Positions 6,732 to 30,700 of a stretch of DNA of 64,000 bases are shown in pieces. The notes beneath the pieces are model-generated. The model was not told the origin of the DNA. It worked only from the letters and a program-made list of their open reading frames with translations, and did not search any database. The position numbers were made by a program, and so were the translations under genes. Positions within the stretch are counted from its first letter, which is position 1. Every line of letters begins with the position of its first letter. The stretch is from an uncultured Gammaproteobacteria bacterium (GTDB taxonomy: Bacteria; Patescibacteriota; Patescibacteriia; UBA9934): NCBI GenBank assembly GCA_964344415.1, contig CAYFMS010000002.1, positions 256,593 to 320,592 on the forward strand, read 5' to 3'.

Positions 6732-7901
6732 TCATGATTCTTTTTTCTTCTGTTTCATGCCGAGCCCGACCGCAACGGCAAAACGCGGACCGATGTCTTC
6801 AAGAGCCGGCTTCAAACCAGATGGGACAACGACCCTCGCCCATGGATTGCCAAGATAAACATTTTTATCGACATCTTTCGATATTGCCGAGACCAAATAC
6901 GGTAACTGAGCGCTTCCACCGGTTAAAATTATTTTCTCAATCGATTCTTTTCCAGCATTTTGCTGATCGTATAGAGATAGCGAATATCTAATTTCATGAA
7001 GAATTGGGTCAATCACATCTTTTAAAACGGCTGGCATTTCCCCTTGCGTGCCTCCAAGCGCCAAATCGAGCTTATACTGCTCAGCTTCCTCAAGTGAAAT
7101 ATTCATTGCCTTTGATAGACGCGATGTAATTTCACCACCACCTGCACGAATACTGCGATGCAAAAATGGAATTCCTTCATGCGTTACGGCAATATTCGTC
7201 CGCTCATGCCCAATGTCGACAATCATGATATGTGATTTGTCGTTCCCAATGAGTGAACGAATGAGGGCAAATGCTTCTGATTCAAGCGACGCCAATTCAA
7301 GCCCAGCCGCCTTAAATGTATCGACATATTTTTTGACCAATGTTTTTGGTGTGCCAAGAACAAGAACTCGAATATGCTTACGGGCGTCATCATCAGCAAG
7401 TGGAATATACGCATCATCCTTCCCTTTTTTCACCTTCTCTCCTTTTTTATCTTTCTTTTTCTCGGACTTTTTGAATAATCCCTCTTTTGGCAAAAGATGT
7501 CGATCAATAATCGTTGAGTCGAGTACCATTTCATTCATTGGAAGCGGAAGCAATTTCGCAACACGCCCTTCAATCATATGCTTCAATTGATCCTCGGGAC
7601 TTTTTGGCTGAGGAATCGTAATAATGGCATGAAAAATTTCATGGCTCGGCAGCGAAACATTCACAGCATTCACCTTAGCACCGCTACGTTTATGCAGCTC
7701 CTTCAAAACTCGACCAGCCAGGGCGGGATCATCAAGAAGAGACCCATCCATTGTAGCCTTGCGCCTTGAATAGCCATATGTCGTCAAATGCAAGCGAGAA
7801 TCTTTTTTCTGAAGCTCCGCAAGCTTTATCCCACCGGCGCCAATATCTACGCCAAGCAGCCCATCAATATGTTCCTTCTTTCCAAATAAACCCATGCGCA
7901 C
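6732..7901 (-). CDS. pilM: Type IV pilus assembly protein PilM (actin-like ATPase fold)
   Basis: 389 aa. The N-terminus (GLFGKKEHIDGLLGVDIGAGGIKLAEL) matches PilM/FtsA-like proteins. An internal Lys/Glu-rich insert is present. Confidence 0.7.
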   Translation of the reverse strand: MRMGLFGKKEHIDGLLGVDIGAGGIKLAELQKKDSRLHLTTYGYSRRKATMDGSLLDDPALAGRVLKELHKRSGAKVNAVNVSLPSHEIFHAIITIPQPKSPEDQLKHMIEGRVAKLLPLPMNEMVLDSTIIDRHLLPKEGLFKKSEKKKDKKGEKVKKGKDDAYIPLADDDARKHIRVLVLGTPKTLVKKYVDTFKAAGLELASLESEAFALIRSLIGNDKSHIMIVDIGHERTNIAVTHEGIPFLHRSIRAGGGEITSRLSKAMNISLEEAEQYKLDLALGGTQGEMPAVLKDVIDPILHEIRYSLSLYDQQNAGKESIEKIILTGGSAQLPYLVSAISKDVDKNVYLGNPWARVVVPSGLKPALEDIGPRFAVAVGLGMKQKKKES

Positions 7902-15360: not shown

Positions 15361-15597
15361 TCATTCGGCGATAATTGTCAGGTCACCGAAGGGCGTACTC
15401 TGACAAACTGCTTCGTACGTAACCGCACAGCCGTTCTCATCGTCGAGGCAACGGAAGCTGAAGTAGCCTCCAGCCGCTTCGCACCACTCCCGTTCTCTGG
15501 CCTCGATCTCATCACACCGCTCACATGGACATCCGTCCATGGGTACGGTGACCGTACCCGTGAGCAGCAGGGTGATTGCCATCTGTTGCAACGTCAT
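15361..15597 (-). CDS. Small secreted Cys-rich protein encoded in a GC-rich island
   Basis: Start set at MTLQQMAITLLLTG, which is preceded by AAGGAGG. About 78 aa. Hydrophobic N-terminus, then 8 Cys (DGCPCERC...WCE...RCLDDENGC...AVC). The local GC content is conspicuously higher than in flanking genes. Confidence 0.5.
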   Translation of the reverse strand: MTLQQMAITLLLTGTVTVPMDGCPCERCDEIEAREREWCEAAGGYFSFRCLDDENGCAVTYEAVCQSTPFGDLTIIAE

Positions 15598-15731
15598 GCA
15601 CACCTCCTTGTTTATGTGCGCAAAACATTTACCAAATATTTCACGATCTGTCAAGAATTCAGACTTTCACCGCTCGGGAGGATCTCTGTCCAAAATATGA
15701 AAAACAGCCACTAAAAGGTGACTGTTTTTCA

Positions 15732-15752
15732 TGGTTCCCGGACAGGGATTCG
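15732..15752 (-). repeat. 21-nt copy of the tRNA-Gln 3' end (CGAATCCCTGTCCGGGAACCA on the minus strand). A tRNA-like terminus without the rest of the tRNA.
   Basis: An identical string occurs in the full tRNA at 15946..15966. The T-stem 5' half is absent (GAGGGCGAATCCCTG gives only a 5-nt loop). A bidirectional terminator hairpin (aaaaacagccactaaaaggtgactgttttt) abuts it. Confidence 0.6.
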
Positions 15753-15945
15753 CCCTCACCTCTCGGCTCTGCAGAGCCTCGGGATTCCCCGGCGGAGCCG
15801 GGTCAGGCTTCGCCTGAGGGTCCGGGCCTCGCCATGTTGTCTGCTGACAACATATGGCTCCGGCCGTTCGAATCGTCGCAAACCAAACTGTTGGTTTGCT
15901 CAACTGGTCACCATCAAAAAACCGCACTTGCGTGCGATTCTTTGA

Positions 15946-16019
15946 TGGTTCCCGGACAGGGATTCGAACCCCGATTTCTTGGACCAAAACCAAGCGTCCT
16001 GCCATTAGACGATCCGGGA
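15946..16019 (-). tRNA. tRNA-Gln (anticodon UUG)
   Basis: The minus-strand sequence TCCCGGATCGTCTAATGGCAGGACGCTTGGTTTTGGTCCAAGAAATCGGGGTTCGAATCCCTGTCCGGGAACCA folds as a cloverleaf. It has a 7-bp acceptor stem (U1-A72 as in bacterial tRNA-Gln), anticodon stem CTTGG/CCAAG with loop TTTTGGT, T-loop TTCGAAT and an encoded CCA. A terminator hairpin (CGCACgcaaGTGCG plus T6) follows. Confidence 0.8.
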
Positions 16020-16185
16020 GTGGAACACAATTGGATCGGTAAATTGTGCGGGGAGTGTACAAAAAATATGACTGTTAGTCAATGAGAAGTAAGGTGAGGA
16101 AGGTTAGTCAGGTTGGAGGAGGAGATAAAAGAGATTGAGTAGATTTACCAGCGTATAGGTTTTAGCTGGTAGCTTGTAGGTACAG

Positions 16186-16396
16186 AAAGATCCTTCGACA
16201 AGCTCAGGATTTCAAATGCGATCGTGCAGGATGCTGGATGCACAAACGAGATAAAGGAGATTGGAGAGATTCTGGTCGCGAAGTGAGCTTGATGCTATTG
16301 CTTTGACATGCGAGCACCAGAGTAAGACGTACTGAAAGGTACGTTGTCGAGGAGCGGAGCATGGAAATGCAAGAGCGCAAGCTCACAAGCGACGCT
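16186..16396. repeat. Dispersed intergenic repeat, family 2, ending at the dnaX stop codon
   Basis: See the copy at 5214..5424. Both share the 27-nt gatccttcgacaagctcaggatttcaa tract and the ctcacaagcgac tract adjacent to the stop codon. Confidence 0.6.
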
Positions 16397-17984
16397 AATC
16401 GACGATTTTTCCTCCAAATGCGCTCGCAATACTTTTTGCCGAAGCATCCGCATCATTTTCAATTAATATTGGCTTTACTTTAATATCAGATCGCATAATC
16501 TCATTAATCCCCTCAGCCAGCATATCCAAATTCTTCATCTGTGACATCGTGTCGAAATGAAATGAATGCTCAAAACCGACCATCACGATGCCATCCACAA
16601 TCGACTGAGGCTTCGCACTATGCAAAACAAGAGGCAAAGAAATGCTTCTCTTCCCTACCGCTTCGACACATCGCCCCCACTTTGACTGTAAATCAGCAAT
16701 ATCAATGGGTAAAACTTCTGAATCAGATTTCTCATCTTCCGTTTCAGCCTTCTCTTCGGAAACAGATTCATTCGAGTCCTTGACCTCATCCACACTCTCC
16801 TCTTCCATCACTTCAGGCTTGCGATCCGAATCCACTTCTTTATTCACAGTCTCTGGCGCTGAATATTCTTCTGTTTTCACCGATGCAGTCTCATGAGCTT
16901 GCGTCGATTCACACAGCCCCAGAAAAGCTAATTCAAGAGCTAATTGAGGAATGGAATCATGCCGAGGCTTCATCTTCGCATCGAGAAGTGCATCGAGAAG
17001 TGCATGCAATCGGTCGGAGCCAGCTTGAGCAATCTCATTAAGCCCCTCGGCCGTTTCACTGTCGAGCAAATCATTCTTCGGACCACCGAGAGCAAGAAAG
17101 AGGGCATCACGTGTTAAATCGATAAGGAGATTATGCAAATGTTTTACGGCAGCCCCCTGCTGAACATATTGTTCAAGCTCAGAAATAACCAGCTTCGTGT
17201 TACATGAAATCCCAGATTTCAGAATTTGCATAGCCGCATTCAAATCCGTCATCGGCAGAACTAAATCAGCGATATAAGACGTGATTTTTTTCTCCCCGAG
17301 CGCAAGTAATTGTCCTAGAAGACTCTCTGCATCTCGCAAGCACCCTTCCGAAACGCGAATGATCGTATTCAAAACATCGCCATCAGCCTCAACTTTTTCC
17401 TGTTCGAGTATGTATTTCAATCGAGATCGGATCTGTTCCGCATCAAGACGCTTAAAATCGAAACGCATGCAACGAGAAATAATCGTTTCAGGAATTTTAT
17501 GCAGTTCCGTTGTCGCTAAAATGAAAATAACATGAGCAGGTGGCTCTTCAATCGTCTTGAGAAGCGCATTGAATGCCGATGTTGAAAGCATATGAACCTC
17601 GTCAATGATATACACTTTGAACTTTCCTGTTGTCGGCATGAAACGAACAGCATCGATAATATTCTCACGCACATTATCAACGCCTGTATGACTCGCCGCA
17701 TCTATTTCAATGATGTCGATAGCGCGCCCAACATTTGCTTCCGTACAATTTTGACAATCATTACAAGGTTCGGAATCATCTGTCTTTCTATTTAAGCAAT
17801 TTAATGACTTCCCTATAAGCCTCGCAATTGTCGTTTTTCCGATCCCACGCGAACCTGAAAAAAGATAAGCATGGCCTATTTCACCTGTTTTTATTTGATT
17901 CTGAACGGTTCGCGAAACATGGTTCTGCCCTGTAATGCTTGCGAATGTCATCGGTCGATACTTTCTGTAAATTGCCTGTGCCAT
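16395..17984 (-). CDS. dnaX: DNA polymerase III subunit gamma/tau
   Basis: 529 aa. AAA+ clamp-loader motifs (GHAYLFSGSRGIGKTTIARL, Zn-module CNDCQNC, DEVHML, SRC motif ISRCMRF) and an acidic C-terminal extension. Confidence 0.9.
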   Translation of the reverse strand: MAQAIYRKYRPMTFASITGQNHVSRTVQNQIKTGEIGHAYLFSGSRGIGKTTIARLIGKSLNCLNRKTDDSEPCNDCQNCTEANVGRAIDIIEIDAASHTGVDNVRENIIDAVRFMPTTGKFKVYIIDEVHMLSTSAFNALLKTIEEPPAHVIFILATTELHKIPETIISRCMRFDFKRLDAEQIRSRLKYILEQEKVEADGDVLNTIIRVSEGCLRDAESLLGQLLALGEKKITSYIADLVLPMTDLNAAMQILKSGISCNTKLVISELEQYVQQGAAVKHLHNLLIDLTRDALFLALGGPKNDLLDSETAEGLNEIAQAGSDRLHALLDALLDAKMKPRHDSIPQLALELAFLGLCESTQAHETASVKTEEYSAPETVNKEVDSDRKPEVMEEESVDEVKDSNESVSEEKAETEDEKSDSEVLPIDIADLQSKWGRCVEAVGKRSISLPLVLHSAKPQSIVDGIVMVGFEHSFHFDTMSQMKNLDMLAEGINEIMRSDIKVKPILIENDADASAKSIASAFGGKIVD

Positions 17985-18060
17985 AGTGACGCTAGTTTAC
18001 CATACTCTAAGCAGGACCAAGTCATTGATTCTTCTGCACAAATATGATGATTGCTTCCAC

Positions 18061-18104
18061 AGGAACAAGGATTTTTTTGTACGAAAAAGCCACCCGATCT
18101 TTCG
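18061..18104 (-). terminator. Rho-independent terminator downstream of the GC-rich lipoprotein gene
   Basis: On the minus strand, GCCACCCtttcgaaagatcGGGTGGC is followed by TTTTT. Confidence 0.5.
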
Positions 18105-18143
18105 AAAGGGTGGCCGTTGGCTGAAGGTTGAGACTGATCTCGA

Positions 18144-18578
18144 CTAGAAGCCGAGCAGGTCGCCGTTCTCGCAGTCACCTGCGAGGCCGTCCGCCGTGGG
18201 GTAGATGTACACCCAGGCGTCACGCGTTCCGCAGTGCTCGTCGTTCGTGTCACCGCGGCCCGTGGGGTCGCAAATGACATTCGAACAGCCCATCGCGTAG
18301 ATCTCGGCATTGCCGTACGCGGGGGTCCAGGACTGATCGCAGCGGACTTCGATCATCTCGTCCGGCGTACCCTTGACGAACAAGGGAGCATCGCCCGGGA
18401 AGACGAACTGGTCAGAAATGATGCGATCGTTGTCGCCGGTCACCACACAGTTGCCCATGTGGATCTCGACGGAAGCGAAGGCCTCGTCCGCCGGAAGCTG
18501 ACTGCTGGGCAGCATATCGGCAGGGGCGACATCGCAGGCGGTCAGGACGAAGAGAACGGTAGTGAAGGTGCGGGTCAT
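18144..18578 (-). CDS. Small Cys-containing lipoprotein in a GC-rich island. Paralogous N-terminus to the gene at 51164..51499.
   Basis: Start set at MTRTFTTVLFVLTAC (lipobox LTAC), preceded by GGAG. About 144 aa with 7 Cys. Local GC is far above background. The first residues (MTRTF) are shared with the 51164 gene. Confidence 0.55.
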   Translation of the reverse strand: MTRTFTTVLFVLTACDVAPADMLPSSQLPADEAFASVEIHMGNCVVTGDNDRIISDQFVFPGDAPLFVKGTPDEMIEVRCDQSWTPAYGNAEIYAMGCSNVICDPTGRGDTNDEHCGTRDAWVYIYPTADGLAGDCENGDLLGF

Positions 18579-18728
18579 TGGAATCTCCAAAGGATTCATG
18601 GTTGTACAAATATGAGGCGAACCTCATGAACTAACAGGAACCACTGTACCATTTTTTTAGCCTATTGTCAAGGATTTTTAGTGTTTTTATCGCTAATATT
18701 AGCCAATTTAGGCATTCAAAATAAGTCA

Positions 18729-21212
18729 TCATCTCCCTATCGGTGCGGGTGGTGGGACGGTCTTTCTACGCTGGCCTATGCCAGCACGCTCTGCTATTTC
18801 AGATTCAACATTAGCTTTTGGCCGACCATAGCCCAAACGTGAAATATCTTTAAGTGTATGCATTAATTCTGCATTTGGATCTTCTGGAGCATTCGTTTTG
18901 AGCGTAAATGGCTTTAATTGTGCATTATTCGCAATAATTTTTGCATTCCAAGTATATTTATCGGTATTCATCAAATCATATGATGTAAAGATTGGGTCAA
19001 ATACCTTTCCGAGCACCTCAACATCTTCAGGACCAACTCGGGAAACAAGCATTGTTCCCACATTTCCAAGAACAGCGTCACGAATCTCCGTCTTCCCGTC
19101 CTGCACGAGCTGCCCCATATATTGATGCGCGAGTACCAAATTAAGGCGATATTTCCTCGCCTCGGACAGAATGGTCGCAATAGAAGGAGTAATAAAGTTC
19201 TGGAACTCATCAATGTAAAGGTAAAAATCACGGCGCTGATCTTCTGGCAAATCTGTTCGCGTAAATGCTGCCATTTGCAATTTTGCAACCAGAATCAATC
19301 CAAGAAGATTCGCATTGACCTCTCCCGTCGCGCCCTTTGAAAGATTCACGAGTAATATTTTGCCTTCGTCCATGATTTCACGAAAATCAAAAGCTGACTT
19401 TGATTGACCAATAATATTACGCATCATTTCATTCTCGACAAATCTACCGACCTTGGACACCAAATACCCCATCATTTCAGATTTGTGATAATCACTCGTT
19501 TTCGCCATTTCATCTTCCCAGAATGACCTCACAACTGGATCGGTTACTTTCGCCACCCATTCCTTCTGGAATTTCTCATCTGAAATCATGCGTGGAATTT
19601 CTGCAAGCGTACCCGGATTATCGAGATCCGCCATCAATGTGAGCATAAAATTACGCATATTGTGCTCAAACATTGGACCAATCATTTCCGGCGGGAAAAG
19701 CATATAGAAAATAGAAATCATTTCCTGCACGGCAAAATCGCGCATATTCTCATTCGGCGCTTCGAGCATATTAAGCCCCATTGGCCTTTCCATATCAGAT
19801 GGATTGAAATACACGACATCATCAATGCGTTCGCGCGGAATAGAACCCATAATGGCATCGACAAGATCTCCATGTGGATCAATCACTGCAACACCTTTGC
19901 CAGCCTTGATGTCCTGAAGGGCCATATATCGCAAAAAATACGATTTTCCAGATCCTGTTTTTCCAACAAGATACATATGCCGACGGCGATCTGCATCATC
20001 GAGGAATACTTCTGTTCTATCACCTCGATAGAGATTATAACCAAGATGAAGCCCATCCTGAGGAACTCCAGCTGGCACTGGTGCCGTCCGCGCTTGCAGC
20101 CAACGAATTCCCGGTGTTTCTGTTGTTGGGAGAGGTAAATGCCAAAGCGAGGCCATTTCTTCCGTATTCAAAATGACTTTCTGTGATTCATCGAATTGAC
20201 GATAAATATAGTCCCGCAAAAGCCGTTTTTTGCTTGAAGGAACTTTTACTTCAAATGCATTCCCAATTTCATAAATATTAAATTGACTGAATGCTTGCAG
20301 GACACGATTCATGTCTGCCTCAGCCGACGGAGCTGATTTGCTTGAAGCAATAATGCGAATATTCACATCCATGCCCGCCTTACTGACCTTTTCTGAAATA
20401 CCTTCCGCCATTTGCTCATCTGACTTGGTCGGTTGGCGACGCTCCATCTGTTCACGCTTTTGGTCTCGAGTTTCCTTTGACTGCAATGCAGAACTCCAAG
20501 ATTCACCTCCAGAACGAATCGCCTGATCATAATTCAAACCTTTACGTAAATTATCGGCAATACTTCTTGCGCGTGATCGCCAATCTTTCTTTGCACTGCG
20601 TACAATAAATTGCACGGCAAGCCCTTCATCATCCGACACTTTTGAAAGAGCATTCGTTAAACCACTGAGCGGATCACCTTCAATTGTCTTAAATGTGCGA
20701 ATAGGAAGTGTATGATGCCGTTTTAATTTCAAATACCCACCGACAATAACCCCCTGTGCATGGAAAATATTGTGATCCTGAACCAATTCAATATGAGCAT
20801 CAGGATACTGTGCATGTAATTGCTGCTCAACAAATTCCTGCATGTAAATAGGCGTCGTCACATAGAATGTGATTAATTTTTCATGAGCTACGATCTCAAG
20901 AGCGATTTGATCTGTTCGACCATAAAACCACGCCGAAAGACCTCGCTGCGCCTTCATTCCGCCAATGGCAGCATAAAATGTTTCTGCAATAGCTATTTTT
21001 TCATCAACTTGCTGCTGGCTGCTCGTTCCTCTATCTTCATCACTTTTATATTTCGGAACGGTGATCATGAATGTTTTCAGATAACTCGCACCCCCTTGAA
21101 CAAATTGTCGTCGACGTACAAATGAACGCAATAGCATCAGTACAAAAAATGCCAGGATAATCGCCCCCAGTACAATTCCGATCACAACAAATAACCGTAT
21201 AATTTCCTCCAT
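18729..21212 (-). CDS. Membrane-anchored P-loop ATPase of the FtsK/HerA/VirB4/VirD4 superfamily (type IV secretion / conjugative-transfer-like). In this copy the ATPase is fused to an N-terminal membrane plus soluble domain.
   Basis: 827 aa with an N-terminal TM helix. Residues 40-330 are homologous to the separate 527-aa protein at 55910..57493 (FYVTTPIYMQEFVEQQLHAQYPDAHI aligns with FYIRTQAKTRDLVEAALYAQYPEAQV). The C-terminal half carries Walker A YLVGKTGSGKSY, DPHGD, Walker B DFYLYIDEFQNF and SEARKYRLNLVLAHQYMGQL (Arg-finger / sensor region). This half is about 55-60% identical to the 687-aa protein at 53842..55905. Confidence 0.65.
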   Translation of the reverse strand: MEEIIRLFVVIGIVLGAIILAFFVLMLLRSFVRRRQFVQGGASYLKTFMITVPKYKSDEDRGTSSQQQVDEKIAIAETFYAAIGGMKAQRGLSAWFYGRTDQIALEIVAHEKLITFYVTTPIYMQEFVEQQLHAQYPDAHIELVQDHNIFHAQGVIVGGYLKLKRHHTLPIRTFKTIEGDPLSGLTNALSKVSDDEGLAVQFIVRSAKKDWRSRARSIADNLRKGLNYDQAIRSGGESWSSALQSKETRDQKREQMERRQPTKSDEQMAEGISEKVSKAGMDVNIRIIASSKSAPSAEADMNRVLQAFSQFNIYEIGNAFEVKVPSSKKRLLRDYIYRQFDESQKVILNTEEMASLWHLPLPTTETPGIRWLQARTAPVPAGVPQDGLHLGYNLYRGDRTEVFLDDADRRRHMYLVGKTGSGKSYFLRYMALQDIKAGKGVAVIDPHGDLVDAIMGSIPRERIDDVVYFNPSDMERPMGLNMLEAPNENMRDFAVQEMISIFYMLFPPEMIGPMFEHNMRNFMLTLMADLDNPGTLAEIPRMISDEKFQKEWVAKVTDPVVRSFWEDEMAKTSDYHKSEMMGYLVSKVGRFVENEMMRNIIGQSKSAFDFREIMDEGKILLVNLSKGATGEVNANLLGLILVAKLQMAAFTRTDLPEDQRRDFYLYIDEFQNFITPSIATILSEARKYRLNLVLAHQYMGQLVQDGKTEIRDAVLGNVGTMLVSRVGPEDVEVLGKVFDPIFTSYDLMNTDKYTWNAKIIANNAQLKPFTLKTNAPEDPNAELMHTLKDISRLGYGRPKANVESEIAERAGIGQRRKTVPPPAPIGR

Positions 21213-21213
21213 A

Positions 21214-21687
21214 TTAGCGATGACTTTGATAATAATTCAATATTTTATCTGTTTTTATTTTAGATTCTTGTTCAAGGAAAAAATGATTCACCCCTGGAAT
21301 CATGCCGAGCCATTCACGAATGAGGTCTAAAATCTTTTTCACTTTCATACGGCCAGATTCATACATTTGAACAATAGCCACTGCCACTTCTTCCCCTTTG
21401 ATCTTAAATTTTTGTTGTGATTCAGTATCCATCGAAAGGTATGCATCGAGTAAATCTTCTGCCAAAATATCCTCAACAGCCTGCAATACGACTGATTTCT
21501 GTGGAATATGTTCAGCCGGCTGAACAGCAGGAGCTTGGCGGCTTTCATGAATATCAACTGCTAATTCATGGTCAGTTTTTGGCTGCTCAGCGGTTGATTC
21601 CGGTTTTGATTCAAACTGAAAATCCGGCGAATGGTCAGCCTGTTCAACTTTTGGAATACTTACCTTCTCTTGACGCTCCTTTTCCAT
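21214..21687 (-). CDS. Hypothetical acidic protein, probably co-transcribed with the downstream ATPase (2-nt gap)
   Basis: 157 aa with no motifs. Tight coupling with the gene at 18729..21212. Confidence 0.45.
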   Translation of the reverse strand: MEKERQEKVSIPKVEQADHSPDFQFESKPESTAEQPKTDHELAVDIHESRQAPAVQPAEHIPQKSVVLQAVEDILAEDLLDAYLSMDTESQQKFKIKGEEVAVAIVQMYESGRMKVKKILDLIREWLGMIPGVNHFFLEQESKIKTDKILNYYQSHR

Positions 21688-21728
21688 GGTAGTATTGTAA
21701 CATGTCGTTCAATCGACGAGGAGGTTAT

Positions 21729-22103
21729 ATGCCAGATGAATTTAGCACATTGCACGTGATTCAAATGGTAGAGGAGAATTTCCTCTTCGCCATGATCACC
21801 ATCGGCAATCGTTTGCTTATCGTGTCTATTGATGGAAGCCTGTCAGTTGCATGGCCAGATGACGCTGTAGGGGTAAAGATGGACGAACATGTGCTGCTAC
21901 TAGAGCACCCACCCCCACTTCTGTTCAGCACATATGATGTTCAGCGTTGGCTTCAAATGATGCGATTGAGGCTGATTGACGGAATCATGCACGAACTCCG
22001 GCAATTGCTTCAAGCGGATCTCTCTCCTGAGCGCCGAAAAGACATCATGGAAAGCCTGCGCATCTATAACGAAGAGTGCAAGCGCTACACGCCGCCAAAC
22101 TAG
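21729..22103 (+). CDS. Hypothetical protein
   Basis: Start chosen at MPDEF, which follows GAGGAGG. The track ORF begins at 21702. No motifs. Confidence 0.4.
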   Translation: MPDEFSTLHVIQMVEENFLFAMITIGNRLLIVSIDGSLSVAWPDDAVGVKMDEHVLLLEHPPPLLFSTYDVQRWLQMMRLRLIDGIMHELRQLLQADLSPERRKDIMESLRIYNEECKRYTPPN

Positions 22104-22288
22104 GCGGTTTTTTGATTACAAATCTGTTTATGGTCCATAAAACAAGATTTGTAATCATCCTGAGCAAAGCGAGATCTTTGATCGAGTCTTTGGGAAGGAT
22201 CTTCGCGACTACGTCTCGTAATCCCAGCCTCCGAGCTACGGCGGGCAGGCAAGGCTGGGATTTCGCATTGCTATTTTCTGCTCCACGG

Positions 22289-22391
22289 GATTCCGGCTCG
22301 GAGGCCGGAATGACGAAGGGTTTCTTAGTACCTACACCCTACAACCTAAAGATCCGTATATTCGTAATATCCGTAAATCTGTAACGGTAAC
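22289..22391. repeat. Dispersed intergenic repeat, family 1 (about 103 bp), ending at the cysS stop codon
   Basis: gattccggctcggaggccggaatgacg hairpin, then tacaccctacaacct, then atccgtatattcgtaatatccgtaaatctgtaacggtaacc. The same modules occur at 57746..57969 and, inverted, at 4866..4953. An additional upstream hairpin CCCAGCC...GGCTGGG lies at 22225..22262. Confidence 0.6.
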
Positions 22392-23750
22392 CTACTTATC
22401 CTCAACCGAAAAGCCTTTTTCGATAATCTGATCACGAAGCGAATCAGCCTTTTCCCAATTTTTCTCTTCACGAGCCTGATTCCTCTCATCCATTAATTTC
22501 TGAATATCCTGTGGAATTTCAATTGGTTTTCCAATATATTTGCTTAAATCAAGTCCTAAAACCTCATCCATTTTCAGAAGCGTCGCAGACTTCTCCGCAG
22601 TATCAATATCACTGCCCATCATATTTTGTAGGACTGCAAGTGCTTGCGCAGAATTCAAATCTTCATTAATCGCAGCTCTAAATGTATCAATCCATTCAAC
22701 ATTTATCTCACCTGGATCTGGCAACTTTCTCGCCTTATCGCGCAGATTATCCAATGCATTCTGCGCAGACTGAAGCGCATCCCATGTGAAGTTAATCGGC
22801 GAAGCATAATGCGCCGTTAAAAACAGATACCTGAGTGACATCGGATCCATTCCATGCTCTTCAATGTCGGCAAGTGTGTACACATTGCCAAGTGATTTAG
22901 ACATTTTTCCACCATCAACCTTCAAAAATCCATTATGCATCCAAATATTTGCAAGCGCATGGCCTCGCGCGGCTTCCGTTTGAGCAATTTCATTCGTGTG
23001 ATGCACGGGGATATGGTCTATGCCACCCGTATGAATGTCGAATGGGCTATCGAGGTATCGCTCACTCATCGCGCTACATTCAATATGCCAACCCGGAAAA
23101 CCGATCCCCCAAGGAGATTCCCATTCCATATGTCGCTCACCTGGCTTTTCAGAGAATTTCCAAAGCGCAAAATCACTCGGATTTTTCTTCTCTTCATTCA
23201 CCTCAACGCGCGCACCCTCTTGTTTTTCATCTAAATTCTGTCCAGATAATTTTCCATAATCTGAAAGTTTTGATGTGTCAAAATAAATACCGTCAGATAT
23301 TTTATACGTGAAGCCTCGCTCTTCGAGATCTTTCACAAGGGCTATCTGTTCTGGAATATGATCCGTCGCCTTTGGCATTATATTCGGCGGAAGAATATTG
23401 AGCCGCGCCGAATCATTGGTAAATTGCTTTGTATAATATTCAGCGATATCCCAAGCCGTTTTCCCCTCCTTGATTGCCTGAGCCATGATTTTGTCATCAC
23501 CCATGCTTCCATCGCCAGATAAATGACCAACATCAGTGATATTCATTACTAGCTTCACTTCATAGCCATTGAAAGTAAGTGTTCTGTTGACTAAGTCCGA
23601 AAAGATAAAGCTTCTAAAATTCCCGATATGTGGCCGTCCATAAACCGTCGGACCGCAACTATATACACCCACCTTCCCATCGTGAATGGGTTTGAGTTCT
23701 TCAATATTCTTTGAAAGCGTGTTTTTGAGTCGTAATGCCATAATGATCAA
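22392..23750 (-). CDS. cysS: Cysteine--tRNA ligase
   Basis: 452 aa. HIGH-type motif (PHIGNFRS), zinc-binding Cys and KMSKS. Confidence 0.95.
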   Translation of the reverse strand: MIIMALRLKNTLSKNIEELKPIHDGKVGVYSCGPTVYGRPHIGNFRSFIFSDLVNRTLTFNGYEVKLVMNITDVGHLSGDGSMGDDKIMAQAIKEGKTAWDIAEYYTKQFTNDSARLNILPPNIMPKATDHIPEQIALVKDLEERGFTYKISDGIYFDTSKLSDYGKLSGQNLDEKQEGARVEVNEEKKNPSDFALWKFSEKPGERHMEWESPWGIGFPGWHIECSAMSERYLDSPFDIHTGGIDHIPVHHTNEIAQTEAARGHALANIWMHNGFLKVDGGKMSKSLGNVYTLADIEEHGMDPMSLRYLFLTAHYASPINFTWDALQSAQNALDNLRDKARKLPDPGEINVEWIDTFRAAINEDLNSAQALAVLQNMMGSDIDTAEKSATLLKMDEVLGLDLSKYIGKPIEIPQDIQKLMDERNQAREEKNWEKADSLRDQIIEKGFSVEDK

Positions 23751-23815
23751 AGTTTATCAGAGCCAAGCAAAAAGAAAAAGCGCTGAAACCAACGCTTGAG
23801 GAGCTTATTCGCGTC

Positions 23816-24082
23816 CTATTCGAAATCGCGGACGAGGTATTTCATGGCGACCTCATGCCGCTCAATGCTCGTCACGTCCGCATTGCGAGACCCCGCTTTG
23901 ACCAGCGTGGCCAGGCGGACACGGCCGAAAATGGCACCATTCGGGTATGTGTCCCGAATATCAACAACTTCGTACACAGAATCCAGATCGAAGTCCTCAA
24001 AATGGATTTCTGCTCCCATGTCTGACAATGTTTGCACTGGAACCACCCTCACGAGCGACCCAATCGTAATCTTATCCGACAT
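23816..24082 (-). CDS. Hypothetical small protein
   Basis: Start set at MSDKITIG, preceded by GGAGG 6 nt upstream. The track ORF starts 19 codons earlier. Confidence 0.45.
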   Translation of the reverse strand: MSDKITIGSLVRVVPVQTLSDMGAEIHFEDFDLDSVYEVVDIRDTYPNGAIFGRVRLATLVKAGSRNADVTSIERHEVAMKYLVRDFE

Positions 24083-24142
24083 ATCAACCTCCAATGTTAT
24101 GCGGCAATGAATACTAGCGTAACTATTGGTATTTGTCAATCA

Positions 24143-24166
24143 AAAAAGCCCCGTTTGGGGCCTTTT
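24143..24166. terminator. Bidirectional rho-independent terminator-like hairpin
   Basis: aaaaagccccgtttggggcctttt: GCCCC/GGGGC stem with A/T flanks. On the minus strand it lies just 3' of the 24182..24661 gene, which follows the giant gene on the same strand. The convergent gene opposite is 23816..24082. Confidence 0.5.
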
Positions 24167-24181
24167 CTGTTTGCGCATCAA

Positions 24182-24661
24182 TTATTCCGTCGCTGCTTCC
24201 TCTACTGGTTGAGCTTTATGCTCTGCAATTGCTTCAACAAGTGCAGAATCAGATTTTAGCTCTTCCGTGAAGATAACATGATCAGCATTTATCACCATTT
24301 CATCTTCCGGCCCATGCAATTCATCCCCAAGCTTCACAAGTGATGTATTTGTTTGCTGTTCAACGATTGGCTGACCAGCCGCATCAACTTGCCCGCTTTG
24401 CTGCAAAGCAGTTTGTACACGCAGATAGTAAATGTCTGAAAGAACAATGTACTCGTCTGATCGACTATCAACTATACCGAAATACACCTGCCCATTTGTA
24501 AGGAATACCGCTTGATGATCCCCTGAATCATTAATCGAACTAGCTCCACCTTTATTCCCCATAAGAAGGAAATATCCAGCTGCTAGAACCGCAGCAACAA
24601 TGACAACTGCGACAACAACTCCTCCTAATGCACTTTTATTATTACTCATTCCAGATTTCAT
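24182..24661 (-). CDS. Hypothetical membrane-anchored protein. Same-strand gene immediately downstream of the giant gene.
   Basis: 159 aa. Single N-terminal TM helix (GGVVVAVVIVAAVLAAGYFLLM) and a predicted extracytoplasmic C-terminal domain. Confidence 0.5.
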   Translation of the reverse strand: MKSGMSNNKSALGGVVVAVVIVAAVLAAGYFLLMGNKGGASSINDSGDHQAVFLTNGQVYFGIVDSRSDEYIVLSDIYYLRVQTALQQSGQVDAAGQPIVEQQTNTSLVKLGDELHGPEDEMVINADHVIFTEELKSDSALVEAIAEHKAQPVEEAATE

Positions 24662-24703: not shown

Positions 24704-27700
24704 TTACTCCTGTAAAGATTCTGTGTTAATAGTTTCTTCTTCCGCTGGCGCTGGTTCAGGTGAAGATTCAACAATTGGCTCTTCGATAACCACTTCTTCA
24801 ATAATCTCCTCTACCTGAGGTGCTTCTTCTACCTCTTCAACCACCGGTTCGATAGTAGATGTTTCGACAACATCCACTACCTCTTCCGTTGTAACTTCAT
24901 CCTCTTCTTCAATCGTCTCCTCTTCGATTACTTCTTCGAGAACCGGTCCAAAGACCTCTTCTGTCACTTCTTCCGTGTTTTCAATTGATTCTTCTTGCGC
25001 TGGCTCTTCTTCTACGATTTCAGAAGAAGTTTCAGTCTCAGTAGAATCCTCTGTTACCTCTTGCTCAGTCGATTCTTCAACTTGCTCTTCAACAACCGGC
25101 ACATCTTCTACATCTATCGTTTCTGGCTGCTGAGGCACGATGATTTCAATTGTCGATTCCTGAGCGTTATCTGATCCATCCGCGATGACAATTTCAATTT
25201 CTTCTGTCGTACCATCACTCACGAAAATCTTTCCTTCCTCAACCGCGAATGCATGCCATGAGAAGTCAAGGTCATGTCGCACTTCCTGATTAATCTTGAT
25301 TCGGAATCCAGCCGTTGTTTCATCAAGTACCGTGTATTTGAAGCTTGCAAATAGATTCGCTTCGCCACGCGGAGACGCTGTTACAATTGGCTGATATTCA
25401 TATTCTTCTTCGAATTCAACTTGTACATATCGGTCGCCTTCCAAGATTCTAGCAATTCCGGCCGTATCAGCCCCGAATGTTGCATGCTTCTGCACATGAA
25501 TTCCTTCCGTGAATTCCTGCAATGAAGCAATCTCTACTGATTCTGAACCATCAACCGTAACACCAGCAGCCTCTTGAAGACGTTCGAGTACAGCGACACG
25601 TGCTTCGAGATCCGTGAATTCTTGCGCAAGATCATCAACGCTGATTACGAGATCCGCTACTGTCAATTCAAGTGCATCTATACGTCCATCCATCAGGCTC
25701 ATTTCTTCTTGACGTTGTAATTCTGAAGCCGTGACCGCATCATTGATCGCTGCATCAATACCGAGCTGATTAAGCGTCGCTTGCGTATCTGCCGTGAGAA
25801 CGGCGAAGACGTCGTAATTTTCAAGTGCCACATCAATTGAATTATCGATTCCAAGTCCGTCAATTCGCTGATCAATGGTGTCATTAATTGTCGTCGTAAG
25901 GTTGAGTCCAGCGATTTGTCCATCTACGATAGCCGTAATGTCTTCATCGAAGTTCAATGTTTCAAGCGCGCCGCTAATCATAAGCTCAACCTCATCCTCG
26001 ATTTCCATTGCTGCTACATGCTCCGCAACCTCTGCTTCAACTGATTCAACCGTCAAGCTCTTATTACGACGAGAAATGAGTACATTTACCATTCCCGTTT
26101 CTCCAGAGAGATCTTCGAGTGCAACACCGACGGTTGGGTCTCCCGGACTCGCTTTCATTGCATATCCTGGAATTGACGCTGATGTCAGTGAATCACCAAC
26201 ACGAATTTCACCATTTTCATTCGTCACATGTGCATCAACCTGTCCGAGCATACCTACGATTGCATAATGTGCATTGTCGACTGTTTCATCTGTTGTATTA
26301 CCGATAATGGATGGATTGTCAGAGATAATACCCATCACATTACCATCAGAAGCCCCAGAACATCGCTCTACCGCATTATCTCGTGTGATGTCCACACAAA
26401 CGATTTCACCGGCAGCAAGGTCAGACTGAACAGAGTAGAAACGCTCGGCATAGTCGGCTCCACCAGAGTTGTAAGCGACATCTGAGAATGTTTCACCATC
26501 CTGAGCAACACGCCATACAGAATCAGATGTTCCATCAATATCGACATTGAATGCTGCGAAGTTGAATGTGTCAGTTGTTTCTGAATTTGTTTCAATTTGC
26601 ATGATTCCCATTCGTCGACCAGTACCGTCACCCGTCATAGCAAGCGCTCCAGATTCTGCCATGATATGAAGTCCCGCTCCAGCCGTTGAAAGCGTTGCTG
26701 ATGCATAATCTACACTGATAGCTTGTACCGTTGCAGAAGCGATATCAACTGCGAGTGGCCCATCGAATCCAGCCGTACCAGTTCCTAAGAAGTCAAATGT
26801 TGGATTCGTCGTCGCATTTCCGAATGTAATCGCTTCAGATGAATTTGTCGTATTGATATTGATGTAATTATCACTTCCTTGCTGCAAGTCATATGCATCG
26901 GTTGTATTGTCAGTCATTGAAGGCGCAAGTGTATCTGAGAGATATGCCATGGTTCCTGCCGCATCCTGAAGTGTAATTGTTCGAGAAGCAGAGAATCCAG
27001 ATCCGTCGAGTACCAATCCCGTATTTGCTGCAACGCTGAAGTTCATGTTTGCATTTGGGAATGTAATTGTCTTATCTGTCGTTGTCGGTTCCGTAATAGA
27101 GAAGAATGTTTCTTTCGAATCCGCACCAGCCCCTTCAAATGCCAATGCCTGCGTTGTTCCCATGATTGCACCGTACATGTAGATCTTGTCTCCAAATCCA
27201 TTTCCAAAGGTAGAATTATCATAGACCGTCAAATCATCTACCGTAATATCTGAGGCTTGTGCCGTACCGATGTCAACACCATCAATTGTTCCACCGTCAA
27301 TATCAACATCACCCGTGAAGTGAATATCTCCTGTCGTACCAGCATCTGTAAGCGTCATGAGTGTATTTGTTCCATCGGTGAACGTGAGCACCCCTCCGTT
27401 ACCTATAGAGATGATTGGACTTGTTGTATCAAAACTCAAGTCTCTATCCCATCCATCTCCGATACGAATTGCCGACTCAAGTCCGTCAGCGTCAGCAGAT
27501 GCAATGTCATCGATATCGAGTCCAATGACTTCATCCGTTGATGCTGCATGATTCGCACTTGCAATATCGAGTACTAATGCTCGGTAAATGTCAGATCCAT
27601 CACCTGCACCGGCTGTAAAGTCAATTTCCATTCCCTCTTCTGAAGCAGCAACTGCAGCCGTCTTCACAAGATTTACATCATCTGCAGAGTCTAATGTGAT

Positions 27701-30700
27701 ATTGAAGTCTCCACCGGATAGATCGAAGTCGCCATCGCTGATTAGGATATCTCCAGCCGTGAGAACAAGAGCATCTGTTCCATCAGCAGATCCATTAATT
27801 GTCACCGCTCCGCTACCAAGGAATGAGAAGCTTGGATTTGTTGTTGCATTTCCGAAGGCGATATTCTCTGATGAATTTGTCGTATTGATATTGATGTAAT
27901 TATTGCTTCCTTCCTGAAGATCATATGCATCCGCCGTATTGTCAGTTAGACCACTACCACCGCCCGTTGAAATCGCCGCAAATGATCCACCATCATTTGA
28001 GAGCTCCCATTGGTCAGTTGAAGCATTGTAACGAATCTCTCCGTCACTGTCCGATCCCTGATTTGCCAAGATTCGTATATTTGCCCCTGACCCAGCATTA
28101 TCTTCATCAAGTTCTATAACCGTTCCATGAACATCGAAGTCTCCACCAGCCGTGAAGAGTCCTGTTCCTGTTGTAATTGCTTGATTATTTGTTGTATTGA
28201 AACTGAATGCTCCAGAACTATCGAGTGATCCGTCAGAGAGCGTCGTCGTTGCACCCGCAATGAATGATCCATCGGTATAAACACTTCCTTCAATACCTGC
28301 AGTTCCCGCAACAAAGAGGTCATCTCCTCCGAGTGAGAAGTCTCCATTTGCGAGAGTTTCAGATGTTGACGTTGAACCACCAACGATGAGGTCTTCGTCG
28401 AAAAGTACATCATCCGCATCTACATGAATGGCATATGTATCTGAACCCTCAATGTACAAACCAATATCCGTAGATCCAGCCGTTTGATCTTCAATTTGAA
28501 TACCGTAATTCGTTGTTAATGTCCCAGCTGGATTAAACGCCGACTGGACCTGGAGACCGGCACCAGTCGTGATCGTTCCTGTACTTGTGTTCATTACACG
28601 TCCGGCCAAACCAGCAGCTTCTGTGATTGTTCCCCCCGTCTGATGAATAACACGACCACCACCACCAGCAGCAAGTGTAACTGTACCAGCTGTACCAACA
28701 TTACTTGTCACAAAAGCTCCAAGGAAACCACCAGCCTCATTGACCGTTCCTGTTGATTCATGAGAGAAAATTCCCGTCGCACCTGTTGAGAACGTATTAC
28801 TGTCAAATGCACCTGACTGCACAGCCGCGCCATCCAATTGGAGTGTTGAATGAGAACCATGCGTGTACGTACTTACCGTCCCAGTATCTATCGTCAATTG
28901 CGCACCAACTCCATACCCATGCACATTCGTAGCTGAAATGTCAGCACCTCGTCCCGTTGCGCTTACCGTACCCGATGTCGCCGTTGCATTATAAGTAACA
29001 TCAAGTGCTGATCCAGAATCATTATATGTAGCTCCTGCATTGTTGACCGTAATATCTTTATCGATTCGAACAGTATCCGCCGTATCTGTGCGAGTAGCCG
29101 CTGCTGTCAATGTTCGATCTGAAACGAATCGTCCAATAGCTCCAGTCGCATCAGCTGTAATTCCTGACGCCGTGTGATCCACGTTAAAGACATTTGATGT
29201 AGTAATAGCATTACTCGTCGTACCAACATCAACCCCTATGCCACTTGTCAATCCATCAAAACTCAAAGATGCACCCGAATTTGTCGTGACCGAATCACCC
29301 GTCATTGTGAACAATGTTTCATTATTCGCACTTGTAATTGCATACTGAATGTCCGTTGCAACAACATCTCCATCTGAATCAATTCTCCAGTAATCCGTTC
29401 CTGAACTATCTTCAATTTCTATAATTTTCTGGTTTTGTGTGCTGTTTGCTTGAATGAGCAACTGCACCTCATCCGTATCACCATCGACAGAGAGTTTTGC
29501 AAGAGATGCTCCTCCAATACCGACATTGTCTGTAGAGGTTGAAAGGGTGATATCTGTTCCTCCATCTGTCCAACCAGCTGCTTCAGAGATACCTCCGTCT
29601 AGAATGGTGAATTCAGCCGCAGAAATAAGCGTTCCAGAGATGTCGAAGAGATTGGTGAATCCTCCGCCTGCATCTACCGTCTTGAAGACAGTACCAACAA
29701 CATCATCTGTGTCTGAGTTGTCTGCAACGAAGAGTGCGTCTAATCCTTCTGTACTTGCCGCATTGTCGAGATACAGTCCGTATTGAGCTGTCGTTGAACT
29801 TGTTGTGTCTTCAGCTGTGAATGTATGCACAACACCATTTTCACTTGTTGCATCCGTAAGCGTTCTTGCAATAGACCATGTTTCTCCTGCTGTACCGGTA
29901 ATACTAGTTGCAGCGTCGAGTGCAAGTGCATCTGCGAATTCTGTGAAGTCGAGTGTATCTGCTGTAAGGTCAGCTCCGTCTACATTAGATAGAGAATTTC
30001 CTGTTCCATTCGCATCAAAGGCTACACCTGTAATCGCTCCTGTTGTAGAAATATCCCAGTCAGATGTGTTGATCTGCATGGTGTCTCCACCGTCTCCAAG
30101 AAGAACAGCTCCGCCTGGTGTAAGAGTGAATGCTCCTGTTGTTGTGAACGTGGTAGAAGCTCCATCGAATGAGACGTCTGTATCTGCGACCGCAAGATCA
30201 CCGTTAAGATCAATGGTACTTGAGGCAAGAAGTGTTCCATCAAGCGTAACAGCTCCATCTACTTCAAGTTCACCCTCAATGTATGCATCTTCTCCGTCCA
30301 TGGATGCTGTTCCCGGTGTTCCATTTCCTACACGTAGATTTCCTGTTGAAATGCGGAAGCTGTCTGCTCCGGCTGCAAGTGAGAAGTCGAAGAGATCATC
30401 CGCATTCGCATCAGTGTCTGTGATAGATCCGTCTGCATAGGTCGTTGTAGACCCGGCGATGAATGATCCATCCGTATAGATGCTACCTTCTACACCAGCC
30501 GTTCCCGCAACGAAAAGGTCATCTCCGCCGAGTGAGAAGCTTCCATTTGAGAGGGTTTCTGTACTAGAAGTTGAACCTCCAACAATAAGGTCTTCGTCAA
30601 ATCGAACGTCATCGGCGTCAGCAAAGATGGCATATGTGTCACCACCTTGAACGCGAATACCATAGTTATTCGTATTTCCAGTTACATCTTCGATATCAAG

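Follow-up and report, generated by a model that had tools for sequence, protein, structure and literature searches.

What does a small patescibacterial chromosome do with a membrane-anchored ATPase of secretion-system type that is placed among housekeeping genes, and what is the short gene that stands directly before it? These questions are raised by a stretch of 64,000 nucleotides (hereafter the window, meaning the whole stretch that was analysed), whose minus strand encodes an 827-amino-acid (aa) protein that fuses a membrane module to an ATPase core and, directly upstream of it, a protein of 157 aa. Both open reading frames (ORFs) had been singled out in an original prediction made from the sequence alone, and both are present. 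Three things are new here. The fused protein is a hybrid, with the layout of VirB4 and a motor like that of VirD4; this protein and a split version of it encoded elsewhere in the window represent two fixed orthologous systems; and the 157-aa protein belongs to a novel family that is tied to the fused ATPase. We tentatively propose, with a confidence that falls somewhat short of even, that the two-gene operon specifies a translocation ATPase that belongs to the FtsK-HerA superfamily and is tethered to the membrane, together with a dedicated small cytoplasmic accessory subunit, and that the pair works independently of a type IV secretion system (T4SS). We hold the anatomical part of this explanation to be nearly certain, but are much less sure of the substrate and of the independence from a T4SS.

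The idea that the 827-aa protein unites both modules of the split system is borne out by the alignments, in which its N-terminal half matches a separate 527-aa protein and its core matches a separate 687-aa protein. The fused protein starts with a transmembrane (TM) helix, which the AlphaFold 2 (AF2) model renders as part of a single continuous helix across residues 2-36, and all that follows this helix is predicted, from the positive-inside rule, to be cytoplasmic. Between the helix and the motor lies a module that the precomputed annotation of the exact proteins assigns, in the 827-aa and the 527-aa protein alike, to PF26449 (DUF8128), a family neither of whose names occurs in the searchable literature. 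The AF2 model of residues 1-385 has a mean predicted local distance difference test score (pLDDT) of 92.7 and a predicted template-modelling score (pTM) of 0.88. When this model was searched against the PDB with Foldseek, the top 11 matches were all TrwK/VirB4 chains of plasmid R388 (expect value (E) 1e-6 to 2e-5, probability 1.00, TM-score 0.36-0.40); the next match had E=6e-3 and an unrelated fold, and motor-domain structures of TrwB, FtsK or HerA did not occur in the top 50. Walker motifs are absent from the module. Given that VirB4 was matched without these motor-domain structures and that the module lacks Walker motifs of its own, the matching part of VirB4 is most plausibly its N-terminal domain, the Foldseek output giving no aligned residue ranges. 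The sequences themselves do not reveal this connection: a profile search of the PDB with DUF8128 gave 0 matches, and hhalign of DUF8128 against the VirB4-like protein of a Bacillus subtilis plasmid gave a probability of 0.3%, that is, no similarity. Thus, the relationship between DUF8128 and VirB4 is one of fold.

The motor belongs with a different family. Above their curated cut-offs, the Pfam families TrwB_AAD_bind (PF10412; 41.3 bits, cut-off 20.5), T4SS-DNA_transf (PF02534; 34.9 bits, cut-off 20.1), TraG-D_C (PF12696; 24.4 bits, cut-off 22) and DUF87 (40.8 bits) are matched by the 827-aa protein, and TrwB is its sole PDB match by sequence (E=2e-6). Profiles specific to VirB4 fail on the same protein, as neither CagE_TrbE_VirB nor AAA_10 gave a match at E<=0.01 and the 18 bits obtained with NF045975 (VirB4_plasma; cut-off 590) come from the P-loop only. 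With VirB4 (TrwK of R388; PDB 7O43, 7O41, 8RTD) the fused protein therefore shares a VirB4-like N-terminal domain (NTD) followed by an ATPase of the FtsK/HerA type, in a total of about 800 aa, but its ATPase half matches the VirD4/TrwB profiles and not those of VirB4. With the type IV coupling proteins (T4CPs) of the VirD4/TrwB type (R388 TrwB, PDB 1E9R) it shares the Walker A, Walker B and AHQ motifs, a core assigned to their Pfam families and, up to a point, a membrane anchor at the N-terminus. Unlike a typical T4CP, which has two TM helices directly before its nucleotide-binding domain, it has one, and about 350 aa of VirB4-NTD-like DUF8128 separate this anchor from the motor.

By profile and fold comparisons, the 157-aa protein defines a new family. 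Searches of Pfam, NCBIfam and PHROGs returned nothing, and a Foldseek comparison of the AF2 model with PDB structures returned generic helical bundles only (E of at least 0.35). The 217 homologues that were detected are all unnamed or hypothetical and have no Pfam family on record, and at least 515 species-representative genomes encode a relative. In the ABY1-type Patescibacteria (Uhr-, Magasanik-, Falkow-, Komeili-, Kerfeld- and Buchananbacteria) its gene always directly precedes that of the fused ATPase, as the loci below show. In the model, residues 66-156 form five helices with pLDDT above 90, and residues 1-60 score below 55; the N-terminal half is variable across the family. Ten residues (G98, W126, P131, N134, F136, Q140, K143, I144, K145 and D147) are invariant in two alignments. 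The protein had been described as acidic, and it is mildly so in the window (isoelectric point (pI) 5.16, net charge -9), but acidity is not a constant of the family, in which the pI has a median of 5.5 and ranges from 4.4 to 9.5. An analogy with VirB3 was considered and rejected, as the protein has no TM segment.

To what extent is this small protein tied to the ATPase? From genomes encoding a relative of it we fetched 80 loci, which underlie all counts out of 80 given below. The question of whether its homologues stand next to such ATPases in other genomes is answered by 76 of them, where the next gene downstream, on the same strand, encodes a fused DUF8128-ATPase. The remaining four have no downstream match; three of these end at a contig end within about 410 nucleotides (nt), and the fourth (L014) has about 960 nt downstream. 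The partner thus always precedes the fused ATPase in all 76 informative loci, and the two genes form an obligate operon. Their spacing is between -11 and +23 nt in 57 of the 66 pairs in which it could be measured, with a 4-nt ATGA overlap in 12 pairs. In the window the junction reads ...CGC TAA t ATG GAG..., so that the gap is 1 nt and not the 2 nt given in the original prediction, although the translational coupling proposed there agrees with the tightness and the conservation of the spacing. It could be argued that the 157-aa ORF is a mere conserved neighbour or a leader-like gene without a functional tie to the ATPase, and the moderate correlation between the distance matrices of partner and ATPase (Spearman 0.47) would fit this. 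However, same-strand adjacency persists in all informative loci even where cysS, corA and other neighbours vary, the spacing is typical of translational coupling, and the C-terminal domain of the partner is confidently folded and strongly conserved. We regard this explanation as highly improbable.

The surroundings of the pair are conserved as well. Clustering of the ORFs in the 80 loci gives a recurrent order of cysS, in some loci a corA gene on the opposite strand, the small partner gene, the fused ATPase gene, in some loci a methyltransferase-like gene and a gene of a family of about 205 aa (c3), and dnaX; cysS is found in 56, dnaX in 55 and c3 in 41 of the loci. The recurring neighbours, which were judged by Pfam or by eye with a subset scanned, look like housekeeping genes. 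Neither virB3, virB4, virB6 and virB8 nor T4SS or relaxase families were found among the scanned ORFs of the window, and no virB3, virB6 or virB8 was recognised at the related loci, where part of the neighbours was scanned. In the 31 genomes with all four genes, the mean pairwise identity is 0.54 for the fused ATPase, 0.53 for CysS, 0.52 for the partner (C-terminal 95 aa) and 0.44 for DnaX. The distance matrices of ATPase and DnaX correlate with a Spearman coefficient of 0.57 and those of CysS and DnaX with 0.40, the range for the ATPase against housekeeping genes being 0.35-0.57, so that the ATPase and partner matrices track the housekeeping genes about as well as the housekeeping genes track each other. 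These correlations, together with an identity like that of core genes, fit a vertically inherited core gene and not a mobile element. Based on these comparisons, the pair of partner and fused ATPase appears to have been inherited vertically between cysS and dnaX and to be as conserved as CysS. The single-gene copy probably has a core transport job, given its housekeeping setting away from recognised secretion and plasmid genes.

The neighbourhood also invites the reading that the fused protein is a chromosome-handling translocase that acts, like FtsK or SpoIIIE, at the division septum, which would explain the proximity of dnaX. The protein is a highly conserved, membrane-anchored member of the FtsK-HerA superfamily with dnaX as a frequent neighbour, and the split ATPase has a weak match to FtsK_SpoIIIE. 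Yet that match, at 20 bits, is under the 24-bit cut-off; in the fused protein FtsK_SpoIIIE has no match at all and the gamma domain, which reads the FtsK-orienting polar sequences (KOPS), was not found; and the best matches are to T4CP families and TrwB. We therefore consider a septal role of this kind very unlikely.

The c3 family occupies the position directly after the fused ATPase wherever it was counted (e.g., L035 10120..10743). Its members have a variable N-terminal half, acidic in many of them, and an invariant core, NYASKS..VEGD.LKL..KQIGP. A c3 homologue (L089 378..956) adjoins a 40%-identical fused homologue and lies on the opposite strand. Profile searches of Pfam, NCBIfam and the PDB gave nothing significant for c3, and a match to DotY at E=0.12 was treated as noise. 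In the window, tblastn for remnants of c3, corA (c4) and the methyltransferase-like gene (c13) gave no matches. The c3 protein may be a third component of the fused system. In about 10 of the 80 loci (L025, L028, L031, L036, L038, L045, L058, L063 and L080) a cluster of pilD, a pilin gene, a response regulator gene and pilM lies directly upstream of cysS, which could be plain synteny or could be a hint towards DNA uptake.

The split system consists of the 527-aa DUF8128 protein and the 687-aa soluble ATPase, and it allows the age of the duplication to be judged. By BLASTP, residues 386-813 of the 827-aa protein and the 687-aa protein share 42% identity across 429 aa (E=4e-111), and residues 5-380 and the 527-aa protein are 24% identical (E=3e-24). 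The two ATPases are thus homologous, as had been suggested, but the identity of 55-60% that had been estimated by eye was too high. The similarity is not that of a generic P-loop, since the alignment spans the whole core, and Walker A, Walker B and AHQY are intact in both paralogues. In many genomes one long contig carries both paralogues. We built a neighbour-joining tree from 60 ATPase cores (422 trimmed columns, 100 bootstrap replicates), with fused and split ATPases taken from the same or from closely related genomes. It places the split ATPases of six genomes in one clade (bootstrap 100/100) and, in another (100/100), the fused ATPases of the window and of four other genomes, in which split-type homologues also occur on contigs of matching length; the two clades are exclusive sisters in 0/100 replicates. 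Identity over the trimmed alignment is 76-77% inside either clade and 40% between them. The separation into two orthologous groups in the bootstrapped tree indicates that the fused/split duplication is ancient, in agreement with the earlier view that it is not recent.

Which of the two forms came first can be addressed with the breadth of the family. A library-wide search returned 22,817 cluster representatives, of which 6,051 had E<=1e-30, and the best 150 are nearly all full-length fused proteins; in the tree, the split clade nests among fused-type representatives. This dominance of fused proteins among the best 150, together with the nested position of the split clade, suggests that the split form arose by fission, and the fused form is probably the common and ancestral architecture, with the split copy derived from it. 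Some fused homologues reach 1,400-2,000 aa (e.g., P0382 and P0387-P0395), with the extra length mostly C-terminal to the ATPase; in a few long ones (P0488, P0504 and P0508) it is N-terminal.

The two copies also differ in their accessories. In the 527-aa protein, whose 2,910 homologues all have PF26449 only, a TM helix spans residues 23-46 and the acidic, Pro-rich tail closes at the C-terminus with a conserved motif, GMPAPLPPGLD...NLP (residues 501-527); this motif could be a peptide that docks the 527-aa protein to its separate ATPase. The 687-aa ATPase matches TrwB_AAD_bind, T4SS-DNA_transf, TraG-D_C and zf_Tbcl_2 in Pfam and TIGR04272 in NCBIfam. Beyond its core it continues into a basic tail (residues 431-687, pI 9.06) that includes KKRKRRRRRRKK at residues 650-661, and zinc finger and basic tail together form a putative nucleic-acid-binding tail. 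A hidden Markov model of the 157-aa family, run against the six-frame translation of the window, found the known gene only and no second copy, so that the split system lacks such a partner. As had been noted, the two copies stand in different contexts, with uppP and secDF beside the split one, and both contexts are conserved in other genomes; the order secD (with a peptidyl-prolyl isomerase domain), secF, DUF8128, ATPase, uppP recurs in all 7 other genomes inspected. These distinct conserved contexts and distinct accessories suggest functional specialisation of the two copies. The SecD protein of the window (58863..60836) carries an inserted peptidyl-prolyl isomerase (rotamase) domain of the PPIC type, and the fusion of SecD with a rotamase lies upstream of the split system in 7/7 other Patescibacteria loci inspected.

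The position of the split paralogue, always between secDF and uppP in the loci checked, brings up the reading that the fused protein is a motor for the export or assembly of proteins or envelope components, with the 157-aa protein as a chaperone-like adaptor. A small, mildly acidic partner that is encoded upstream recalls secretion chaperones, which is a lead only. Type IV pilus genes, which in about 10 of the 80 loci lie upstream of cysS and in the window (pilD and pilM) lie 11-13 kb away, would also suit this reading, and some T4CPs and VirB4-family ATPases do handle proteins (reviewed in PMC12857230). On the other hand, synteny in tiny genomes may be a matter of history and not of function, the split ATPase has a zinc finger and a poly-basic tail, which speak for nucleic acid, and the fold of the partner matches no chaperone. 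Taken together, an export motor seems to us quite unlikely.

The family extends well beyond the Patescibacteria. phrog_5156 covers residues 97-809 of the 827-aa protein (E=3e-83), and the full-length fused architecture recurs in gp156 of Bacillus phage G (24% identity over 88% of the length) and on Streptomyces and Embleya replicons. On Bacillus plasmids a fused homologue adjoins a replication-relaxation protein, TcpE and a VirB4-like ATPase (B. subtilis plasmid example), and on haloarchaeal plasmids the split pair lies inside clusters of pilin and ATPase genes. One 37%-identical homologue stands beside a T4SS_pilin-like gene, and a 40%-identical fused homologue stands among rpmE, prfA and prmC and has a c3 homologue as its neighbour. 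The proteins of phrog_5156, phage G gp156 and the plasmid 'DUF87 domain-containing proteins' thus have the same full-length fused architecture as the 827-aa protein, but they are on mobile elements, are 21-30% identical to it, and have no 157-aa homologue at the loci inspected. The family thus appears to behave on mobile elements as a conjugative coupling ATPase and to have been domesticated in Patescibacteria.

This very large and uncharacterised family has already been flagged in the literature as orphan T4CPs. According to the portions of the survey on which we draw here, and to which the statements on it below refer, 2,918 Patescibacteria genomes contain 5,713 homologues of VirD4-type T4CPs, only 148 of which are near virB4 (Quiñonero-Coronel et al. 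2025, PMC12102498). The whole phylum has 109 relaxases only, the t4cp gene of Southlakia is not essential while its T4SS genes are, and the authors state that exaptation of the T4CP homologues 'cannot be ruled out' and that their function is unknown (PMC12102498). About two T4CP homologues per genome fits one fused and one split paralogue, and the orphan T4CPs of that survey are almost certainly the same genes. Those portions count the homologues without describing the N-terminal module, the two orthologous groups, the neighbourhoods or the partner family. Whether DUF8128 corresponds to the 'TrsD' of PMC12102498 was considered as well; this is unlikely, as TrsD homologues are mostly next to virB4.

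Given this history, the fused protein might be an ordinary T4CP (VirD4) that serves a Patescibacteria T4SS encoded elsewhere, with the 157-aa protein as an adaptor that recruits substrates. It does match the T4CP Pfam families above their cut-offs, its Bacillus plasmid homologues stand beside relaxase-like and Tcp conjugation genes and the haloarchaeal ones in pilin/ATPase clusters, and T4CP genes often lie at a distance from virB4 (PMC12102498). Nevertheless, a gene that serves a T4SS would hardly be expected in about two copies per genome with 5,565 of 5,713 not near virB4, in a phylum with so few relaxases and with a dispensable t4cp beside an essential T4SS in Southlakia (PMC12102498). The synteny with housekeeping genes is deeply conserved, the level of conservation is that of CysS, and the NCBIfam equivalog or subfamily cut-offs for T4CPs (TraD, TrbC, CD1115, MobC) are not reached, the best being TIGR03743 with 45.6 bits against 366. 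Unlike the known T4CPs, the system is chromosomal, has two paralogues and a dedicated small partner, and has no recognised relaxase or mating pair formation genes nearby. We thus view service to a conventional T4SS as unlikely.

The closest functional model that we can offer comes from another domain of life. CedB and CedD are paralogous chromosomal ATPases of the FtsK/HerA type, with a TM segment and a VirB4-NTD-like domain, that are needed for DNA import in Crenarchaeota (PMC11868833). The layout of TM segment, VirB4-NTD-like domain and ATPase, the co-occurrence of two chromosomal paralogues and the location outside mobile elements are shared with the patescibacterial proteins, and by this likeness CedB/CedD would be the best functional analogy for both paralogues. 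The systems differ in their neighbours, since neither a CedA-like channel gene nor Ups-like pilus genes lie next to the patescibacterial ones, and in their N-terminal domains: both patescibacterial paralogues have the NTD in full, while CedB and CedD have each been matched to a part of that of VirB4.

Returning to the T4SS-independent translocase that we favor, the fused motor would assemble into a hexamer on the cytoplasmic side of the membrane, where it would be held by its TM helix and VirB4-like N-terminal domain, and ATP would drive a polymer across or along the membrane without a conjugative T4SS. DNA would be the most likely polymer, to judge by the family's ancestry, the Ced analogy and the nucleic-acid-type tail that the split paralogue has. 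The 157-aa protein would use its helical bundle to dock and would serve as an adaptor or a regulator, and this accessory subunit would set the fused system apart from the split one, whose ATPase carries a putative nucleic-acid-binding tail of its own. Several observations weigh against this proposal. The similarity of DUF8128 to VirB4 is moderate (TM-score ~0.40, root mean square deviation ~9 Å) and confined to the level of fold; a recognisable DNA-binding appendage is absent from the fused protein; and the NCBIfam models of CedD (NF053655) and CedB (NF041017) give 19.7-24.5 bits, mainly from the P-loop, against cut-offs of 600-700. Furthermore, the motor may be coupled to a T4SS elsewhere in the genome, since T4CP genes can sit far from virB4 and the window is 64 kb, and the link of the split paralogue to secDF and uppP fits a role in the envelope or in protein export equally well.

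A bolder extension, which we hold to be doubtful, is that the Patescibacteria carry two near-universal translocases that act without the T4SS and together constitute a hitherto unrecognised chromosomal machine for nucleic-acid import or export, by analogy a bacterial counterpart of Ced, with the 157-aa family and possibly c3 as accessory subunits. If this were true, such a machine could feed DNA or nucleotides to auxotrophic epibionts or mediate exchange with their hosts. The Patescibacteria account for a large share of bacterial diversity and have stripped genomes, yet, in the survey data cited here, they have kept about two unexplained T4CP-like ATPases per genome (PMC12102498). The present description turns the vague annotation of 'orphan T4CP' into a defined and testable system with named parts, and the Ced DNA importers provide a concrete analogy for the movement of DNA or other polymers across the membranes of ultra-small symbionts. 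The features on which the description is based are collected in Table 1.

Table 1. Coordinates in the window of the fused system, its partner gene, the split paralogue and adjacent genes.
Feature	Position	Strand	Basis or remark
Gene of the 827-aa fused protein (TM helix, DUF8128 module and VirD4/TrwB-like ATPase)	18729..21212	minus	ORF
N-terminal TM helix, residues 5-28, IRLFVVIGIVLGAIILAFFVLMLL, then RSFVRRRQF	21129..21200	minus	sequence
DUF8128 N-terminal module, residues 37-385	20058..21104	minus	VirB4 N-terminal-domain-like fold in AF2 model
ATPase core, residues 386-815	18768..20057	minus	motifs, Pfam
Walker A GKTGSGKS, residues 417-424	19941..19964	minus	motif position
Walker B YLYIDE, residues 664-669	19206..19223	minus	motif position
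AHQY motif, residues 695-698	19119..19130	minus	motif position
Gene of the 157-aa partner	21214..21687	minus	ORF, directly upstream of the fused gene
Partner residues 1-64, predicted to be disordered, acidic, Pro-containing	21496..21687	minus	AF2, sequence
Partner residues 65-157, conserved helical bundle	21217..21495	minus	AF2, alignments
Partner motif W-L-x-x-IPGVNxFFLEQExKIKTDKI, residues 126-149	21241..21312	minus	alignments; nearly invariant
Split system, part 1: 527-aa DUF8128 protein	55910..57493	minus	BLASTP to fused N-terminal half, E=3e-24
Split system, part 2: 687-aa soluble ATPase, no TM helix	53842..55905	minus	BLASTP to fused core, E=4e-111
C-terminal CxxC-x17-CxxC treble-clef zinc finger of the 687-aa ATPase, residues 460-484	54454..54528	minus	motif, zf_Tbcl_2
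cysS, conserved upstream neighbour of the pair	22392..23750	minus	Pfam tRNA-synt_1e, E=2e-104
dnaX, conserved downstream neighbour of the pair	16395..17984	minus	Pfam DNA_pol3_delta2, E=1.5e-42
GC-rich 151-aa lipoprotein-like ORF	18144..18599	minus	lipobox L-T-A-C (VLFVLTAC), pI 4.05

The window as a whole has a GC content of about 44% and resembles a small Patescibacteria chromosome, with mnmA, lepA, recJ, ligA, gatA and dnaK/dnaJ/grpE/hrcA around the pair in addition to cysS, dnaX, secDF and uppP. Its nearest named relatives are Candidatus Uhrbacteria and metagenome-assembled genomes (MAGs) of the "Patescibacteria group". A scan of positions 16000..24200 for promoters and terminators gave counts no higher than those in shuffled sequence and was uninformative.

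The GC-rich lipoprotein island that had been noticed next to the fused gene is real: a 151-aa ORF with a lipobox lies in a stretch of about 600 bp (18000..18650) with a GC content of 0.52-0.62 against a background of 0.44. The codon-position GC of this ORF is 0.59/0.45/0.80, and the third-position GC of the host genes is about 0.37; by this contrast the ORF looks horizontally acquired. It has no relative among the 80 related loci, its exact sequence is absent from the protein collection searched, and the gene caller of the source assembly annotated an antisense ORF of 131 aa in its place. It fills the slot that holds the c3 gene in about half of the related loci (41/80), and it is probably foreign and outside the conserved system. 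A second patch of elevated GC (0.50-0.57) lies at 15361..16085 around a tRNA-Gln gene (15946..16019) and contains a Cys-rich ORF of 97 aa (15361..15654) without a family match or an entry in the protein collection; the two GC-rich ORFs, when compared, showed no similarity.

Between cysS and the 157-aa gene, where many relatives have a divergent corA, the window has two plus-strand ORFs of 133 and 102 aa (21702..22384). They gave no family match and a corA remnant was not detected in them; the source annotation has a single gene of 124 aa in this interval. Beyond cysS lies an ORF of 5,238 aa (24704..40420) that is rich in Thr, Gly, Asp and Ala; it starts with a signal-like segment, contains long repeats and ends in an acidic tail. 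It has no Pfam family on record and probably encodes a giant surface protein. The type IV pilus genes mentioned above, at 11-13 kb from the fused system, encode a prepilin peptidase (pilD, 5426..6244) and PilM (6732..7901).

Finally, many of the database records in which this typical Patescibacteria locus occurs bear the title 'uncultured Gammaproteobacteria bacterium' (MAGs from binchicken and SRP co-assemblies), and one such record is titled 'Candidatus Udaeobacter sp.'. These titles on loci of the Patescibacteria type, for which L005, L007, L008, L010, L017, L019 and L022 are example candidates, look like taxonomy mislabels in the public records.

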